A stretch of 64,000 bases of DNA from a virus (taxonomy: Duplodnaviria; Caudoviricetes). The DNA lies in the IMG/VR virus record IMGVR_UViG_3300014204_000120, positions 73,850-137,849 of that record; one strand, written 5' to 3'. Of the stretch, positions 36,475 through 64,000 are shown piece after piece. How positions within the stretch are numbered: position 1 is the stretch's first letter; each line of letters begins with the position of its first letter. Made by a program: the position numbers and the translations under genes. The notes under the pieces are model-generated. The model saw only the letters and a list, made by a program, of their open reading frames with translations, made no database searches and was not told the origin of the DNA.

Positions 36475-37305
36475 ATGAAGTTGGTTGATTTTAAAAACAA
36501 AGATAGATTGCATGTTTATGATAGATCAATAAATTATCAACTTCAAGATAAAACAATGATATTTATGACTTTTATGATAGATTCTTTTAATACACCACCA
36601 GAACTTTCAAATTATGTTTGGAAAGTTCGAAATATATTTATGCAGATTATTTGGAAATTAAAGGATCAATTAAATGAAACTATTTCATATAAATCATAGA
36701 GATTTATTAAGTGTTCAAATTTATAAAACAATTCAACCAGAAAAAATTGCACAATTAAATCATATTATTAAAGAACTTAGTTTTTCCTATTATGTTGATA
36801 ATATTAGTGCAGCACAATCTATGTGGAATTTAAATAGAATTCATAATAAAGATTTGATGTATGATGAAATAATGAGTAAATTAAATGAAAAAATTAGTTG
36901 ATATAAAAGTATATGATTTTAAAAATATGTTTGATAATTATTGTGATGATATTGATCTAAAAATTGATATACATTGTAATTCATTTGTTAATCATGGTGT
37001 ATATTCTGATTTGTGGTATTTAGTTAGAAGACCTGTTCGATTTTGTATTAAAACGCATACTAGAAATTTAATTCTTTCTGAGTTGAGTGGAATATTTAAT
37101 GGAATTAAATAATATAAAAAGCGAAATAGATATGGAAATAGGACTTCTTTCTGCAAATAAAGTAGATAAAATGATGTACTCTACAATAAGTCATGAAAAT
37201 TATTCAATGGCTTTTAGACTATTATTTAAAATAAATATTTTAACTCAATTACATTTTGACCTAACAGAACAAATAAATGAACAAACAGAAAAAAATATCG
37301 TTTGA
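36475..37305 (+). repeat. Satellite cluster of four small overlapping MKL-family ORFs (36475-36699, 36674-36901, 36885-37112, 37099-37305)
   Basis: Starts MKLVDF, MKLFHI, MKKLVDI, MELNNI; ends [LI]NE...; same junctions as the 57874-64000 array. Confidence 0.65.
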
Positions 37306-42818: not shown

Positions 42819-43025
42819 ATGCAATTAAAACAAATAACTAATTTATCTCAAATAATCGATCAAGTTAATTTTCATATAAGTTTACTTTTATTACAGATTA
42901 ATTCTTTAGAAGAAATACGCTATACCATGAAATCGGGATATCAAATAAATAATATAGTTGAGACTCAAGTTATTTATCAAGTCGAGTCAAAAATTAAAGA
43001 TCAAATAAAGGAATTTTATGTTTAA
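42819..43025 (+). CDS. Isolated MKL-family small protein
   Basis: MQLKQI...TQVIYQVESKIKDQIKE. Confidence 0.55.
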   Translation: MQLKQITNLSQIIDQVNFHISLLLLQINSLEEIRYTMKSGYQINNIVETQVIYQVESKIKDQIKEFYV

Positions 43026-55973: not shown

Positions 55974-56258
55974 ATGTCAAATGTTCTTGCCATTATTAAA
56001 CAATCAGCAGTTGAAACTTTTCCAAATACACCAAGGTATAAGGCAAGATTCTTGGTAAGGTCTTCAAGTTCAAATAAGAATTATATGGTATCTTATGATG
56101 CTGCTCCTGGTGCCGGTTATTGGACTTGTTCATGTAGAGGTAATATTGCACACGGACAATGTAAACACCTTTCAATTATAGGACTTAAAGGTAGAAAGTA
56201 TGGACATAATCTGCTTTCTAAACAAGAAGTCGAACAACTAAATCAACTTGGTCAATAA
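55974..56258 (+). CDS. SWIM zinc-finger protein
   Basis: V.SSS...Y.V...WTCSC.......CKH. Confidence 0.8.
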   Translation: MSNVLAIIKQSAVETFPNTPRYKARFLVRSSSSNKNYMVSYDAAPGAGYWTCSCRGNIAHGQCKHLSIIGLKGRKYGHNLLSKQEVEQLNQLGQ

Positions 56259-56566
56259 TGAAAACTAAACGTAAATCTATTTGGGATGATAATTATTCGC
56301 CTTATGGAACTTATAAAGGTCCAAAAGGCAATCCTAAACAATGGAAGGATGCATTTGAATTTGTAATGAATGGTACGCAAGCTGCTGAAATTATCCAAAA
56401 TGATTCACCTTGGTCTATTCTAGGCCTTAAGATTGGAGCGACTATAGAAGATATTAAAAATGCCTTTAGAAGGCTTGCTCTAATAAATCATCCGGATAAA
56501 GGTGGAAATTCAAACATTTTTATGAAAATTCGCGCGGCATATGTTATATTAACCAATAACCATTAA
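56258..56566 (+). CDS. J-domain (DnaJ-like) protein
   Basis: PWSILGL...A...DIK.AFRRLA..NHPDKGG....F..I..AY..L. Confidence 0.9.
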   Translation: MKTKRKSIWDDNYSPYGTYKGPKGNPKQWKDAFEFVMNGTQAAEIIQNDSPWSILGLKIGATIEDIKNAFRRLALINHPDKGGNSNIFMKIRAAYVILTNNH

Positions 56567-56582
56567 TGAAAGGGTGTGTTGT

Positions 56583-57431
56583 ATGATTGATTCCTTGAAT
56601 GAGGAACAAGTCAAGATGATGGATGTTTACTGTAAGAAGTTCATTGATATTGGATATTCCACTGAGCCATTTACGCTCGAGGAAGCAATCAATATCATGA
56701 ATCCTTTTTATGAAACTATTCTGAAGCAGGCCAAGCCTGAGCAGGTGTTGGTGTTTCCTTCACCTCTTGCTGTTTGGAGTTATATTCAGAAACAGATTGG
56801 ATCCAATATTGGTTTTGTGTGGCCGTATTTGTCAGGCTCTTTTGATGCAAACATTTTCGCGCTGTATGATTACTGTATTGAGGTTTTGCATATCAATATC
56901 AGTGATGATTTGCTTGAGAAGTATAACATATGGAAACGCACACTGAAACTTGGTTTGATATTTGCTTTTGATGATGTTTGTATTATCAGTGAAAAACCTG
57001 TGGAATATCACAGGAAGAACGGTGTGTTGCATTGTGAAACAGGTCCGGCTATTCGCTTCAAAGATGATTTTTCTTTGTGGATCCTGAATGGTGTTCGTAT
57101 GAAAAAAGAGCATGTAGAAACACCGTGGGATAAAATTGATATCTATAGTGTTATTAAAGAAACCAATCTTGAGGTCCGCAGAGAACTTGTAAGAAAAGTC
57201 GGCATGGAAAGATTGATTACGGAACTCGGTGCAACGACAATCGATCAAGAAGGTGACTACGAACTGCTTGAACTGAATATTGGTGATGGCAATCGTAGGC
57301 CTTATCTTAAAATGAAAAATCCCAGTATTGGAGTGTGGCATGTGGAAGGAGTGCCGCCTAATACTAAGACTGTGAAGGAAGCATTGGTTTTCCGTAATGG
57401 TACTGATGAAGAGCCCGATTTTTTGAGCTAA
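56583..57431 (+). CDS. DUF6745-like protein
   Basis: ISEKP......G.LH...GPAIRF.D.F.L....GV; N.EVRR.....G.ER; PS.....EGVPP...TV.EA; probable ATG 56583. Confidence 0.7.
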   Translation: MIDSLNEEQVKMMDVYCKKFIDIGYSTEPFTLEEAINIMNPFYETILKQAKPEQVLVFPSPLAVWSYIQKQIGSNIGFVWPYLSGSFDANIFALYDYCIEVLHINISDDLLEKYNIWKRTLKLGLIFAFDDVCIISEKPVEYHRKNGVLHCETGPAIRFKDDFSLWILNGVRMKKEHVETPWDKIDIYSVIKETNLEVRRELVRKVGMERLITELGATTIDQEGDYELLELNIGDGNRRPYLKMKNPSIGVWHVEGVPPNTKTVKEALVFRNGTDEEPDFLS

Positions 57432-57482: not shown

Positions 57483-57794
57483 ATGTTGATTCAGCAGGGT
57501 GATGTGTTGCTTCGTGCCGTTAAGAGTATGCCAAAGGGTAAGAAAGTTGAACGTAAGGCACGCGGCTATGTGCTGGCAGAAGGTGAAGTAACAGGCCATG
57601 CGCATGTGATTGAGGATGAAATTGACCTGATTCTTGATGAGGCTTCCGGTAAGATGTTCATGACAAATGCCGAAGAAGTCACAGTCAAGCATGAGGAACA
57701 TCATCATGTCAATGTTCCTGCTGGTATTTGGGAAGTTGGCATTGTGAAGGAATACGACCACTTCGCAGAGGAAGCCAAGAACGTTGCAGACTAA
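57483..57794 (+). CDS. Conserved His-rich partner of DUF6745-like proteins
   Basis: QQGDVL, LAEGEVTGHAH, HEEH, G.W.V....EYD; RBS aaggagg. Confidence 0.75.
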   Translation: MLIQQGDVLLRAVKSMPKGKKVERKARGYVLAEGEVTGHAHVIEDEIDLILDEASGKMFMTNAEEVTVKHEEHHHVNVPAGIWEVGIVKEYDHFAEEAKNVAD

Positions 57795-57822
57795 GTAACA
57801 AAGCATTATTTTTGGTTGTATG

Positions 57823-57862
57823 ATATGCAGTGTTTTCTAATCCAAAACACTGCATATTTTTT
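57823..57862 (+). terminator. Rho-independent terminator
   Basis: atatgcagtgtttt-ctaatcc-aaaacactgcatat-ttttt. Confidence 0.85.
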
Positions 57863-59122
57863 AAGAAAACAATATGAAACTAATTGATTTAAGAAACAAA
57901 TCAATGAAACTAAGTAAATTAAAAAAAGAGTTAGAACTTAAGTTTCAAATAACTGATAGAGTCAGGTTTAAAGTAGAGTCTTTAAGGTATCCATTCAGCA
58001 CTCAATTTATTTTACAAGTTTGGTTTTATTTTAATTTACGAGTTTGGTCTCATGTTATGTTTCAGATACATCATAAAATTCAGGACCAAGTAAATGAAAC
58101 TAAGTGAATTAAAATATATAAAAAATAAGTCGTTTCAAGTAGAACAACAAATTAATATTGACATAAGTTCTAAAGTTATAAATGGTATTACTTGCCGTTT
58201 TTATAATGTACATTTTTATAAAGAATGGCAACAATTTGAATTTCGTGTTGGTGATGAAGTACTGAGTCAACTCATAGAGATTTTTTACTTGGAACCAATC
58301 AAATGAAATTAATCGAACTAAAAGACATTGCAAAAAATTATTTTGATTTTATCTATATATCATTACCATCTAAATATGCAAATATAGATTTCCAATTATG
58401 GAACAATCTTAACTCTCAATTCTATTCTGATTTATGTTTAAGCAAAATTCATACTCAGATTTCTGGTATTATATATTCACAAGTCATGTTACAAATGAAA
58501 AGAAATATAAGAATAGAATCATGAAACTAACTAAAATAAAAAATAGGTATCAAGTCAATTTCTCAAGTCTATTTTATTCTCAATTAGATTCTCAAGTTAA
58601 ATCTCAAGTCAGTTCTAATGTTATAGTTCAAGTTATGTCTTATGTCGTGGATCAAGTCGATTCTCAAGTCGTCTGGTCTCAATTTCGGGATCAAATCAAT
58701 GAAACTAAATGAAATAGAAACAAGATGTAATATTGATTATCAAGTTAATTCATATAAATTTTCTAATGTTATGGTTGAAATGCACGATAGCATCCATTCT
58801 AAAATTCATTATTATGTTCTATATTTAGTAAATGAAATTAATGATAGAAATGGGATCAAATAAATGAAACTAAGTAAAATAAACAATGATCAAGTTTGGT
58901 CTCAAGTCAAATCTCAAGTCTTTTATCATAAATTTTCAACATTATCTTTTAATATTGAAACATTTAATATTAGAACAGATATAAATTATAAAATTAACAT
59001 GCTTCTTAATAAATGGATATTATATAATGCAAAACAATTCTTACTATATAGACATAGTACTAATTTAAATAAAGAAATACTTTGTGAAGGAATACACAAT
59101 ACTTTAACTAATAAGGGATAAT

Positions 59123-59338
59123 ATGGAACATCTAAAATCCTTCTCAATGGGTATGATTTATCTAATCTCAATTATAATTATGTTTATTATATTTAAACCT
59201 ACAGTAAAACATACATCTATAATAACAACCCATAATATCCATACAATAACTTATCAAGATACCTTATGGGTTTTAATACCTTTAGATGCTTCAGCTATGG
59301 TTAAACATCCAAAATACAAACCATTCTATTTTAAATAA
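59123..59338 (+). CDS. Small membrane protein
   Basis: One hydrophobic segment. Confidence 0.5.
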   Translation: MEHLKSFSMGMIYLISIIIMFIIFKPTVKHTSIITTHNIHTITYQDTLWVLIPLDASAMVKHPKYKPFYFK

Positions 59339-59342
59339 GACC

Positions 59343-59371
59343 TTGACATTTTTATTGCCATGATGTATATT
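59343..59371 (+). promoter_or_regulatory. Early sigma70 promoter
   Basis: TTGACA(59343)-N17 ending TGATG-TATATT(59366). Confidence 0.85.
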
Positions 59372-59399
59372 CTTTATAACCTTAACAAAGAAGGTCTTT

Positions 59400-59684
59400 A
59401 TGGCAAGAGTAGACCAAATTGGTACAACTAGCACGTCAATTATAACTGATAAAAAGTATACCAAAATAATCTATCATACCACTCCTGTTGTTAAATTCAG
59501 TGAAAAATTCATTATTCTTAACAACGGTGGATATCAAACAAATACCACCAAACACCGTATGAATCAAACAAGTAATGAATTTGGGCTCAATTTCTTCGTT
59601 TACACGTTTGCCCACAAATGGTATGTACAGTGCCCAAATAAGAAGATCATATTATTTAAAAACAATATGAGAATTAAAAGGTAA
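59400..59684 (+). CDS. Conserved phage early hypothetical protein
   Basis: YH.T.VV...LN.GGY.T.TTK.RMNQ. Confidence 0.65.
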   Translation: MARVDQIGTTSTSIITDKKYTKIIYHTTPVVKFSEKFIILNNGGYQTNTTKHRMNQTSNEFGLNFFVYTFAHKWYVQCPNKKIILFKNNMRIKR

Positions 59685-59950
59685 TTATGCATAGATAAAT
59701 ATGAAACTTAAAGATTATATTAAACCGTCTAATCATTCTGATGATACTATATGCTGTTTAGTTCATCATAATATCCTGGTTAAAGTTAATAATGATATTA
59801 TTTTTAAAATTGAAAACATAAGAGACATAGGCCCTCCAAATAATTTTTCAAGCCAATATACTGTTAATTTTTATATCAATAATTTTGTTGCTTCTAAAGT
59901 TTATGTTCCAGTTCATTCATGTGTAATATCTGAAATGGTGGATATATTAA

Positions 59951-60172
59951 ATGAAACTAAGTAACATTAAAAATAAAAGTAATGCCAATTTTCAAATAGC
60001 AGTTAAAATTCAGTGACGTGTAGAAAATAAAATCGAATCATATATTAACTATGCTCTTACTTTTAATTATGGATTATATCTGAATGCACAACGTGTTTTT
60101 GATTTTGAAAATATAACAAATACTTGTTTTTATATTGATGATCAAATTAAAGAAACTAAGAAAATTAAATAA
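59951..60172 (+). pseudogene. MKL-family ORF with an in-frame TGA at 60014-60016
   Basis: MKLSNIKNK...KIQ*RVENKI...DDQIKETKKIK; the frame stays open for 51 codons after the stop and ends with the family tail. Confidence 0.65.
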
Positions 60173-60247
60173 TTGTCATAGTCAAACTGGTACTTTTAGA
60201 GGTAGAAATAAAAAGAATTGTTAGTAAGCTTTATGCTCTTTGAAATT

Positions 60248-60532
60248 GCCGCTGTGGTGGAATGGCAGACACTGGGGACTCAAAATGGGTCGCTTATCTT
60301 GAAAAGGATAAGTAGTAAGGTGTAAATTCGATGAACGGCTCTCTGAAATGGAAACCCAACGTCGAGCGAAGCCCGAAAGGGAACGTGTAGAGACTATAAT
60401 CACCCACCTAAAGCTGAAGCTATGGCGAAGGCATAGTCCAGACCACAAACATTTATATGGTAGCGAAAGCTATAGTGGTAAGTAAAATCCCCTGGCCGTA
60501 AGGCCGTCCCGGTTCAAGTCCGGGCAGCGGCA
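60248..60532 (+). tRNA. trnL: tRNA-Leu(UAA), intron-containing; exons 60248-60280 and 60483-60532; no encoded CCA
   Basis: Acceptor GCCGCTG/CAGCGGC plus A73; D-arm GTGGAATGGCAGACAC; spliced anticodon arm GGGGA-CT^TAA-AA-TCCCC; variable arm GGCC-GTAA-GGCC; T-arm CCCGG-TTCAAGT-CCGGG. Confidence 0.92.
60281..60482 (+). ncRNA. Group I self-splicing intron (202 nt, compact IC3-like, no ORF)
   Basis: P1 GACUC/GGGUC with U60280-G60288 wobble; P2 cttatctt-gaaa-aggataag; P4 ttcgatg/cgtcgag; P7 gacta(60392)/tagtc(60434) within R gtagagacta and S gaaggcatagtcc; P9 tagc-gaaa-gcta; terminal G60482. Confidence 0.9.
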
Positions 60533-63500
60533 TTTAATTATTATAATCAATTATGAAACTAAAACATATAACAAAATTAGATCAAATCCAAGCAACGGTT
60601 TGGCATGATATTAGATCTTATAACCCTTATAGCTCAATCAGTTCTAATGTCATGCTTCAATTCTATCATAATATTCAGGAACAAGTTAATGAAACTAAAT
60701 AAAACTAAACAAAATATTTTAAACTATCAGACAGCGGGTCCTAAATTTGTTAATTTTTATTCTGTACTATGGGATGATTGCCATAAATCTAATCCTCAAT
60801 TATTCATGTTATGGCAGGAATTTCGTACAAAAATTCCTAATCCTAGACAATTAAATATTGGAAACCCATAAATGAAACTAAAGAATTATACTTATAAAGA
60901 TAATACTGATTTTGGTACTATGACGTCAAAGTTGAATGAATTTTATCTAATTTGGTGGAAAACTTTAGGTGTATTCGCTTATGCGTTACAGTTAAAATAT
61001 AAGAACTTAGATTTAGATATATTAGTTAATCTTAAAAGGAGTATAGATGAAACTAAGGGATGTAACAAGTAAATTATGCGTTTTTGATTATTCTTATAAT
61101 ATACATGCAAAAATGAATGATATTTTATATGATAATTTATCTGTTGAAGCAAGGTTTCATATAATATTATTAGGTATACTGAATAATGATTGGATGTTTA
61201 TAAAGGATGCTATAGATGAAGTTAAAAGATATAGTTAATTTAATTAGTGTAAAAACAACTATAGGAGTAATTGAATATGTTATTTGTTCAAATAATATGG
61301 ATAATATAATGTTTAGAAATCTTATAATGCAGTTAGAACAAAATAAATTAATGACAATAGATATTAAGTTTAGGTATATATTTTTACGTGATGTGTTAGG
61401 ATTTATGGGAAACGAAATAGATAGATTAACTAAGGTTATATGAAACTAAATCAATTCATTAATCCAAATAAACTCATTAAGTCTATACTCAAAACTAATA
61501 ATACTATATCGACTAATACTGATAGGTTATTGATTCAAATGTGCATAGAACAAATAGAATGGGATACTTTTGAAAATATAGATGATAAATTTTTAGGTAT
61601 ATTAGATAGATCTGACTATTGGACCTTACTTGATGGGTTAGTATATGAAATTAATAAAAATTAAAGATATTGGATATTTAGCTTGGCCTATAACCGATAA
61701 TATAGTGTGTGAGATGTGGGATATATTTAATGATGAACTTTATTATTTAGATTGGGATTTTAAGGGTAGGTTTTTAACTTTGTTATTTAGTGAAATTAAT
61801 TTATTGAAGGAGAATCTTAGTGAATTTAAAGAAGATAAATGAAAAGTTATGTGATGATTTATATAATGAATTAATGAAGCTTGTATATAAGCAGGTGGCA
61901 GATGATAATTTAAAGCCTCATCATTTTAATAAGCTTTTAACTTTAAACAATAAGGATAATATAAATTGGCATATGATAATAGATTGTATAAATGAGAATA
62001 TTATAAATGCGGTAGTAAAATGAAGTTAATAGAACTAAAAAATCGTAATTTAGTATATATGTCTAGTATTAAGTTTATATCTGATTGGATAATTGGTATG
62101 AGAAAGGAAGTTCATATATCTATGTTATTACAGAATAGTAAATGGACTTGTATGGATGTTCCTGTATATATAAATGATGCTGTAGATAAGGAGTTATATG
62201 AAGTTAAAAGAGGTTGGTAATAAATATATGAGTTATCCTATAGCAATAAATCATTTATTTAATAGGACTTATGATATTATTGTTGGTGGCCTGACATATA
62301 ATTTGGATGAGTTATTTATTAGATTAGATGTATTGGATGTTAATTTACTTATGATTATGATAGACGATATAATAGATGAGGAGTTAATCAAATGAGGTTA
62401 GGAGATTATATAGGCGTAGATATAATGGATGATATGTACTGGGAGTTAATAATGATTAATAAGAACATAAATGTTTTTAGTGATATTAAAAGAAATATAA
62501 GTTGGTTATTACCTAAATGTATATATCAAACGAAAATAGATTTAAATAGATATGATAGTTTAAAGACTTTAATAGAATTAGAAATATATGATACTTATGG
62601 ACTTAGGTGACTAAATGAAGTTAAAAGAACTATTACATAAACCTTATACATGTGGTTCGTGTATGGGAGATATTAGTATAAAGATATGTGGATTAATTGT
62701 TTTATCTATTAATATAAATTTACTTAATTGGAAGAGCAGTTTAAATGAATTACTTATACTGAGGATAATAAGTGAAGGTATAAATGAAAATAAAAGAATT
62801 AAAGTATAATTTAGTTTATAGTGATGTGATATGTGATTCTTTGAATTATATTAGATTTTTGGAATTGAGATTAGATATGGATAATTCAATATCTTATAAG
62901 GTACTTATGAATTTATGGATACCTGCTTCACATACGAATGGAAGGAATATAATAGATAATGAGTTAAAGGAGATATATGAAGTTAAGTGAGATTAGAAGT
63001 AGTTTAGATATTTTGCCTGATTTATTAAGGAATATTTTTTATAATAGTATTGAGCTTAAGATATATGAAGCAGGGTTATGGCGTAAGTTAATAAATTTAC
63101 ATCATAATAATATTAGAATAGAGTATAATGTACATTCAAGGGTTATAGATTTAATTTATCCTATTCTTATTAGAGGTCTTAATGAAACTAAAAGAGATTA
63201 ATAATTGTTTAGAGATGGATATGCAGATATTCGATAGTATATTTTTGAGAGGAGTTGAGATAAGTATTAAAAACATTAATTATAGAATTAAAATTGGTAT
63301 AAATTTAAAAATGAACTTAGGATTATGGCATCAAGCATATTTTAATATAAAGAATGAATTAAATGAAACTAAATGAAATAAAAAACTATTCACAAATGCG
63401 TATACAAGTATCAGTTAAGGTATATAAAGAACTTAAATCTTTATTAAATTTAGTACCTTATATACCTCAAATAGATACATGTATAAGGCAAAATATACCT

Positions 63501-64000
63501 TATGTATGGAGGCTGGTTTATTATAGAATAAAAGATGAAATTAATGAAACATTTAAATATACATTGATAGATAACGGTAGCTAATTTTGTTGAAAGAAAA
63601 ATATATGGAACTAAATAGCCACAGATTTATAGAAAATAAGAAATACCAATTTATGTCTCGAATTAATCAAATAGTTAAGGATCAAATTAGTTTTCATGAT
63701 TGGGACAATGTTCTAAATCAGGTTAGTTTTAAAGTAGATTCTAGGGTATGGTCTTATCTATACTTTGAAGTTAGAGGTAAAATAAATGAAACTAATAGAT
63801 CTTAAAATATCAGAAACCAACCATAATAATATCAGATCTATTTTAGGCACTATAGAAAATCACATATACGAACAAACTTGGCAAAACGGATATAAAACTG
63901 TTATGGATATTAATGTTAGAAAACATATTCAAATTAAACTAAGACAATGTTATCATCAAATTTTAAATCAAGTAATATATGAAACTAAATAACTTTAAAA

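Follow-up and report, generated by a model that had tools for sequence, protein, structure and literature searches.

A self-shuffling array of small genes beside a repeat-less DUF6745 gene in an uncultured T4-like phage

For hundreds of small early phage genes neither an origin nor a function is known, and a dense row of such genes at the end of one assembled phage sequence raises the question of where they came from and what they do there. The stretch analysed here (the window) comprises 64,000 nucleotides (nt), positions 73,850 to 137,849 of IMG/VR record IMGVR_UViG_3300014204_000120, and forms the final 64 kb of a 137,849-bp contig of 29% GC. The contig opens with T4-type portal, prohead protease, scaffold and major capsid genes, and its source is an uncultured T4-like phage. 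From 57874 to 63992 runs a tandem array of about 27 mini-genes, which begins 443 nt past a gene of the DUF6745 family and 80 nt past a small partner gene with a histidine motif; all three lie on the + strand. We find that eleven units of the array recognisably carry, in the degenerate form xQVx, the four-residue repeat found inside DUF6745 proteins, so that for one block of small early phage genes the origin can be traced, to the repeat segment of a widespread uncharacterised family. We propose that the array encodes, in tandem, a family of small and rapidly evolving proteins belonging to a three-part module made up of DUF6745, the His-motif partner and an [x][Q/S/A]V[x] 'arm', a reading to which we give about an even chance. 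The initial annotation of the window missed the link to the adjoining DUF6745 and its internal repeat, which is the best clue to the nature of the array.

Small genes linked by a dual-coded junction

In agreement with the count in the initial annotation, the array holds 25 intact + strand open reading frames (ORFs) of 49–87 amino acids (aa), together with three further units, of which one is interrupted by a nonsense codon, one has collapsed and one is truncated by the contig end. All 25 intact units start with M-[KNRE]-[LI], 21 of them with MKL, and consecutive ORFs either abut or overlap by 4, 14, 20, 23 or 26 nt. Of the 18 copies of the junction ATGAAACTAA in the window, where shuffles predict 0.80 (largest 3), 16 lie inside the array; the variants ATGAAGTTAA (five copies) and ATGAAATTAA (two copies) still encode MKL. 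As had been claimed, this junction is read in two frames, AAT GAA ACT AAR giving N-E-T-K and, in the next frame, ATG AAA CTA A giving M-K-L. Alternatives at the junction (AAA/AAG and CTA/TTA) are silent in the MKL head and change the tail residue from T to V or I, so the head and the initiation region form the constrained layer, and the tail peptide appears to be at least partly a shadow of them.

Runs resembling AGGAG, GGAG or AGGA stand 5–13 nt ahead of most unit starts, and AAG-GAG-TTA-TAT-GAA-GTT-AAA reads as KELYEVK in the tail frame and as AAGGAG-N4-ATG in the next. Stops and starts that overlap or abut, with a ribosome-site-like run inside the upstream ORF, are what a coupled operon would look like, and translational coupling of the units is plausible from these overlaps and from the Shine–Dalgarno-like runs in each preceding tail. 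Programmed frameshifting that would fuse the units was considered and rejected: the next unit lies in the +1 or –1 frame with no common slippery site, and each unit is equipped with a start and a ribosome site of its own. Between successive ORFs there is no room for an attC-like site, since most of them overlap or abut (no attC model was applied).

Judged by their reading frames, the units are maintained ORFs. Twenty-five consecutive ORFs of about 65 codons stand on the same strand within DNA of 25% GC, each unit in the window has one frame open over its full length, and opposite-strand ORFs are short. Orthologous and novel units in three sister contigs (L219–L221), which came from a metagenome scan, are all open as well. 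Searching IMG/VR for the pattern ATGAAACTAA-N(160-190)-ATGAAACTAA returned only chance or short-tandem-repeat matches, so the exact junction is private to this phage lineage. A nucleotide search of 50,697 phage records left the array unmatched, with only matches of about 100 nt nearby, and the last intact unit, u27, used as a handle in viral contigs, gave no match.

A repeat shared with DUF6745 proteins

The intact units form two groups. Group A (n = 11) opens the array with u01–u06 (57904–59121), delimited by their ORFs and overlaps and by profiles from foreign arrays; it includes u09 (59701–59964; 87 aa, ending in LNETK), whose sister orthologue is only 40% identical, and u10 (60553–60702; 49 aa), and it closes the array with u25–u27 (63363–63992). 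Group B (n = 14) is the unbroken series u11–u24 (60689–63376), in which a common head, MKLxE[IL]K, and a common tail of about ten residues enclose unrelated middles.

Unit u04 alone, searched against 1.84 billion representative proteins, gave 13 matches with E ≤1e-3, all of them 351–719 aa long, and aligns to the internal [x]SQV repeat block of DUF6745 proteins. The DUF6745 model PF20530 was found in all ten of the matches tested for it, in nine above the cut-off and in P0024 below it at 22.6 bits. Hidden Markov models (HMMs) built from the arrays of three other loci (L134, L140 and L141, described below) recover u04 (30.4 bits), u01 (24.5), u26 (22.8), u03 (17.7), u10 (15.5), u06 (13.4) and u02 (13.0), all above the maximum of 12.5 bits in 1000 shuffles, with u05 weak at 6.3 bits (L134) and 8.9 bits (L141); group B scores at noise level with all three. 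In the sister phages, units that share the MKL...NETN head and tail consist of clean repeats, L219:3335-3565 being one of them.

A profile shared beyond the junction, on which the initial annotation had made its interpretation depend, exists for group A and is lacking in group B. Pairwise BLASTP of the unit middles is barely above chance, with six pairs at ≥20 bits versus about 0.8 in shuffles. In a leave-one-out profile test on units trimmed by 8 residues at the start and 6 at the end, with 100 shuffles, seven of the eleven group A units were found with at most 1 of the 100 shuffles reaching their score, and u10 and u27 were borderline at 7/100, whereas 3 of the 14 group B units passed, and none was significant once the last 14 residues were removed. 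The same annotation had noted that the units often have a central tryptophan: 21 of 25 do have at least one, at a median relative position of 0.58, but the enrichment is only 1.4-fold. Its description of small helical proteins is borne out only in part, since AlphaFold2, run with an alignment of 48 related units, predicts a single helix for u04 over residues 3–62 at moderate confidence (predicted local distance difference test score (pLDDT) 76, predicted template modelling score 0.35), but hydrophobic residues in the units recur with a period of 4 or 2 instead of 3.6. On these grounds the fold may be helical, as one helix or a coiled coil, or an extended beta structure. Pfam, PHROG, PADLOC and NCBIfam offered no family for any unit, only low-complexity matches far below the cut-offs, and an ESM Atlas search with u20 returned nothing.

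The DUF6745 gene beside the array (56574–57431; 285 aa; PF20530, E 4e-14) contains no period-4 run at all. The repeat of its fused relatives aligns as a 265-column insertion after residue 66, close to the sole low-confidence internal loop (residues 78–83) of a confident AlphaFold2 model (pLDDT 89). Between this gene and the array lies the partner gene (57483–57794), which encodes about 100 aa with the motif QQGDV...GEVTGHAH...HEEH and belongs to phrog_27831, a family of unknown function. The partner is 96–97% identical in amino acids in the sister contigs, with a ratio of non-synonymous to synonymous rates (dN/dS) of 0.10–0.13, and its homologues, marked by GE-x-TGH-x-H, occur in L136, L138, L139, L140, L225 and L226 and adjoin DUF6745 in many viral loci. 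The partner has no sequence match in the PDB, ESM Atlas returned just 'DUF6745, mostly viral' for the core, and in the literature we found no paper naming DUF6745 or the repeat strings.

To survey the family, we fetched 80 viral loci with the DUF6745 C-terminal domain as a handle; an alignment of all DUF6745 sequences proved too diverse to scan loci with. Most commonly, a DUF6745 protein of 340–570 aa carries an internal repeat block between an N-terminal helical domain and the C-terminal domain, often with the partner alongside. Six other loci combine DUF6745 with an adjacent array of overlapping mini-ORFs that has its own lineage-specific head: L134, L140, L141, L191, L225 and L226. In L134 (IMGVR_UViG_3300025162_000016; 368,758 bp), found by a search with the u01 orthologue, about 45 small overlapping ORFs of nearly pure xQVx repeats surround the DUF6745 gene (L134:3963-16794; PF20530, E 2e-13), with heads MNNKLINDQ or MNDIIKYQI and the tail SQLESHE. 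L140 has the head MTPL at 54% GC; L141 the head MKSV, the repeat xSAV and the tail FERWIE; and L191 the head MNRF. A reverse search from a unit found L225 and L226, the latter with the head MKLKSV, and in both of these new loci DUF6745 adjoins the units. The partner is present in L140, L225 and L226 and thus, with the window, in four of seven lineages. DUF6745 is repeat-less, at about 285–320 aa, in the window, L140, L141, L225 and L226, and also in L191, at 372 aa.

Across the seven array lineages, GC content spans 25% to 54%, and the peptide repeat is kept as its codons shift from CAA to CAG. Among loci found through DUF6745, arrays accompany four of eight repeat-less genes versus 1 of 30 fused ones (Fisher p 0.004, with categories drawn post hoc). 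The array state is scattered over a tree of the C-terminal domain, whose well-supported branches force at least four changes, so fused and split forms have interconverted repeatedly. Two side observations concern individual loci. The closest DUF6745 relative of the L134 protein is that of L176, a 568-aa fused form from the same sample; and one MNRF-headed unit, L191:7407-7664, is made of an ATYE/ATYW four-residue repeat, from which it may be the period-4 architecture, rather than the QV sequence, that is conserved.

Turnover and rival explanations

The initial annotation's suggestion that the array expands and shuffles by recombination at its junction is borne out by the sister contigs, which keep the flanks (96–97% protein identity in the partner, 95–97% nucleotide identity in the tRNA region) and differ in unit content. 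All three carry units not found in the window; u04 is missing from L220, and u06, u11–u18 and u22–u23 are missing from L221. One sister chimera joins a new front to the back of u19, and in one form the loss of u22–u23 has left the body of u21 with the tail of u23, running directly into u24. Contigs from four other public sequencing runs show a form that skips exactly 58521–58698, which is u04, with 10 nt common to both sides of the joint, and these 10 nt are the junction itself; in another public form, a different 183-nt unit replaces u01 between two junctions. Units are thus gained, lost, replaced and made chimeric between sisters, with breakpoints in a junction of 10–14 nt, and the turnover mechanism is visible both between sisters and in public assemblies.

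The units also change about three times faster than their neighbours at non-synonymous sites. Pooled over ten orthologous unit pairs, dN/dS is 0.73 (bootstrap 0.51–1.07), compared with 0.23 (0.14–0.39) for the partner, a membrane ORF and a gp96-like gene enclosed in the array; single units range from 0.10 to about 2. At the left end, a collapsed unit (57874–57903, read directly from the sequence) consists of the head MKLIDLRNKS followed in another frame by the tail FKKQINETK*, and the same site in sister forms holds different fillings or a duplicated head (P0004 and P0005; L220 and L221). Heads are doubled in the sister unit P0005, with MKLSKLKK twice, and in L220:1237-1476 (MKLSKVIGPLKLSNVIGP), and such duplications point to slippage within the head-coding junction.

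Several described systems resemble parts of this picture. Fused DUF6745 proteins have the same period-4 repeat, of [x]SQV type, as the group A units, but here it lies outside the DUF6745 polypeptide, in about 27 mini-genes with heads and tails of their own, and most units of the array have lost it. Among viral multigene families, the multigene families of African swine fever virus and the amplification of poxvirus K3L ('genomic accordions') involve tandem paralogues with strain-variable copy number and fast evolution, but these are normal-sized genes of eukaryotic viruses whose part in immune evasion is known. The array is likewise a tandem row of fast-evolving paralogues whose number varies between strains, but its members are uncharacterised phage ORFs of 49–87 aa that come from a peptide repeat. 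In its mechanism of turnover the array comes closest to the shuffling by promoter and stem-loop (PeSL) cassettes described for the hyperplastic regions of T4-type phages, where small non-essential ORFs are inserted, deleted or replaced at a short flanking motif, the cassette being an intergenic promoter plus stem-loop between unrelated ORFs (Arbiol et al. 2010, PMC2839356; Comeau et al. 2014, PMC4122927). The setting here is T4-like too, and a conserved motif bounds indels and replacements between close relatives; the recombining motif differs from the PeSL in being a 10–14-nt overlapping coding stretch, with no intergenic space and many paralogous units. A PeSL-type promoter and stem-loop is absent between the units, promoter-like sites numbering 45 versus 54.9 in shuffles and a single hairpin standing at the left border of the array. 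In polymorphic toxin loci a main gene is followed by variable cassettes related to one of its segments; as a rule these are 3' fragments that lack a promoter and enter the main gene by recombination (Zhang et al. 2012, PMC3482391). The DUF6745 locus likewise has a main gene followed by a recombination-diversified row related to one protein segment, but each of its units comes with a start and ribosome site, and the segment is wholly missing from the main gene.

In the module reading, the arm would be encoded inside DUF6745 in most relatives and as a separate row of mini-genes here and in at least six other lineages. Each unit would be translated from its own start, with the Shine–Dalgarno-like run, the spacer and ATG-AAA written in the tail of the previous unit, which would explain why a tail peptide is shared. 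The mini-proteins would then serve as diversified arms, exchangeable for one another, that act together with the DUF6745 core and probably contact a variable host target, and group B would consist of arms that have diverged extremely or else of small, unrelated ORFs trapped between junctions. The comparisons above establish the evolutionary side of this account, whereas the functional coupling is suggested by adjacency, by recurrence in seven lineages and by the loss of the repeat from the core in six. On balance, the array is best read as a multigene family that shuffles itself; it derives from the repeat arm of the DUF6745 module and probably continues to function together with that arm.

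A number of observations weigh against this account. Fourteen of the 25 units have neither the repeat nor a common middle. In fused relatives the repeat sits mid-protein rather than at an end, so a simple gene break cannot yield a downstream array. The DUF6745 and partner block has 37% GC and the array 24–28%, which may mean that the two had different histories in the phage, and satellite units at 36475–37305 and 42819 do not adjoin DUF6745. The family libraries searched name no function for DUF6745, the partner or the units; the PDB holds no match to DUF6745 by sequence, by Foldseek (best E 0.19) or by VIA-align (best Z 4.6); and no RNA runs are listed among the public sequencing runs that contain the stretch.

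According to the main rival explanation, which we consider possible though on the unlikely side, the array is a by-product of recombination-prone 12-bp repeat DNA and the junction, a nursery of near-neutral small ORFs comparable to the hyperplastic regions in T4-type genomes; the closeness to DUF6745 would reflect the origin of the founder, not joint function, and the units would be dispensable ORFans of which a few have gained functions. The pooled dN/dS of 0.73 with its interval reaching 1, the pseudogene and the collapsed unit, the free variation of unit content between sisters and the group B middles without detectable sharing all fit it, as does an array state that arises many times on the tree with a different head in every lineage, which is what separate founder duplications predict. 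Neutral DNA at 25% GC would not, however, allow frames of about 65 codons to stay open across all units and their sister versions, and some units are under clear constraint (dN/dS 0.19 for u20, 0.20 for u02 and 0.10 for u05). The architecture, moreover, recurs beside DUF6745 in seven lineages from 25% to 54% GC with the peptide repeat intact. That persistence of the peptide motif as codon choice shifts also counts against another reading, which we hold very improbable: that the DNA or RNA repeat is itself the functional object, as binding sites or decoy nucleic acid, with the ORFs incidental. Pure-repeat arrays such as L134 do have several frames open on both strands, as 12-nt repeats allow, but in the window a single frame per unit is open at full length and opposite-strand ORFs are short; the units have gene-like heads, tails and start-stop overlaps, and group B has no nucleotide repeat of any kind.

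The initial annotation had interpreted the units as decoys or inhibitors of host sensors; in the form weighed here, they would be independent small proteins, each aimed at a different host sensor or defence and acting without DUF6745. Their small size, their early-region position among accessory genes, and the fast unit-wise turnover and raised dN/dS that an arms race predicts are in keeping with this idea, which we nevertheless find improbable: no unit belongs to any PADLOC, Pfam, PHROG or NCBIfam family, and the repeat is otherwise a built-in segment of DUF6745, which argues for a role tied to DUF6745 rather than to many unrelated targets. Returning to the module, a bolder and more doubtful version, which we put forward tentatively, is that core, partner, trans-encoded interchangeable arms and self-shuffling array make up an undescribed system that supplies renewable host specificities and new genes. 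A junction that doubles as tail, ribosome site and head would permit combinatorial, rapidly renewable specificities against a variable host target, and pure repeats decaying into unique small proteins would make the array a source of new genes. If the arms do act with the core, this would be a new means by which a virus varies its recognition surface; otherwise the locus would be a clean natural case of repeats decaying into new small genes. Recurrence in at least seven lineages, four of them with the partner, makes DUF6745 a concrete experimental target.

Elements within and around the array

Five further copies of the unit had been reported elsewhere in the window, and all five exist: a satellite mini-array of four related units (36475–37305, + strand) and a solitary unit with QV repeats (42819–43025, + strand; E 3e-3). 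Searched against 285 small ORFs, the array HMM finds four of the five at E 6e-5 to 6e-3, with 36674–36901 reaching just E 0.035.

Not everything inside the array belongs to the family: two enclosed + strand ORFs are unrelated to the units. The first (59123–59338) encodes 71 aa with a hydrophobic N-terminal segment, membrane-like in character, and has a dN/dS of 0.22. Its amino-acid identity in the sisters is 100% and 79%, and it is fully identical in L219 and L220 though the adjoining units differ; this ORF is conserved cargo inside a variable array. The second (59400–59684) is a homologue of Kyano_Gp96 (PF23790, E 4e-11; phrog_554). It sits behind a sigma-70-like site, TTGACA-17-TATATT (59343–59371, + strand), which with 11 of 12 matches is the best in the region and the only strong one. 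An early promoter had been placed within the array; the site is there, but what supports it is a consensus match, and promoter-like sites are not enriched overall.

The pseudogenised unit reported earlier (59951–60172, + strand) has a single in-frame TGA at 60014–60016, and in all three sister contigs its orthologues are intact, 85 aa long and carry Arg at that codon; the window copy is a pseudogene or is read through. The tRNA gene said to be enclosed in the array is likewise present, as a tRNA-Leu(UAA) at 60247–60533 (+ strand) with a 202-nt group I intron (60281–60482) between positions 33 and 34. Because the intron splits the gene, ARAGORN and Rfam at its gathering threshold both miss the tRNA; a local search with RF00028 detects the intron (33.8 bits, E 6e-7), and ARAGORN calls tRNA-Leu(taa) after its removal. 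In some metagenome contigs exactly the intron is skipped; because the shorter flank of the joint measures only 30 nt, these may be the tRNA genes of other organisms.

At its right end the array runs into an assembly break. The IMG/VR contig L012 matches the first 1052 bases of the phage contig (G000), the start of the portal gene, at 99.8%, and carries upstream of them 3.3 kb of structural-looking genes (L012:1-3341) that G000 lacks. The contig is therefore not closed, the array runs off the break, where a further unit start can be read directly at 63979–64000 (+ strand), and a portion of the genome is missing between array and portal. With the portal gene as a handle, 23 loci were retrieved, none with an array upstream.

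At the left border, between the partner gene and the array, RNA folding predicts a terminator-like 15-bp hairpin followed by a U run (57822–57858, + strand; –18.1 kcal/mol, z –5.6 versus 200 shuffles), which a consensus scan did not call. A promoter-like GTAACA-18-TATGAT overlaps its 5' side, and the two together (57795–57858) may be a PeSL-like composite. Further upstream, the block from 52 to 58 kb has 33–38% GC compared with 24–30% elsewhere in the window, and directly upstream of the DUF6745 gene lies a gene whose 102-aa product has a DnaJ (J) domain at its C terminus (56258–56566; PF00226, E 1e-10).

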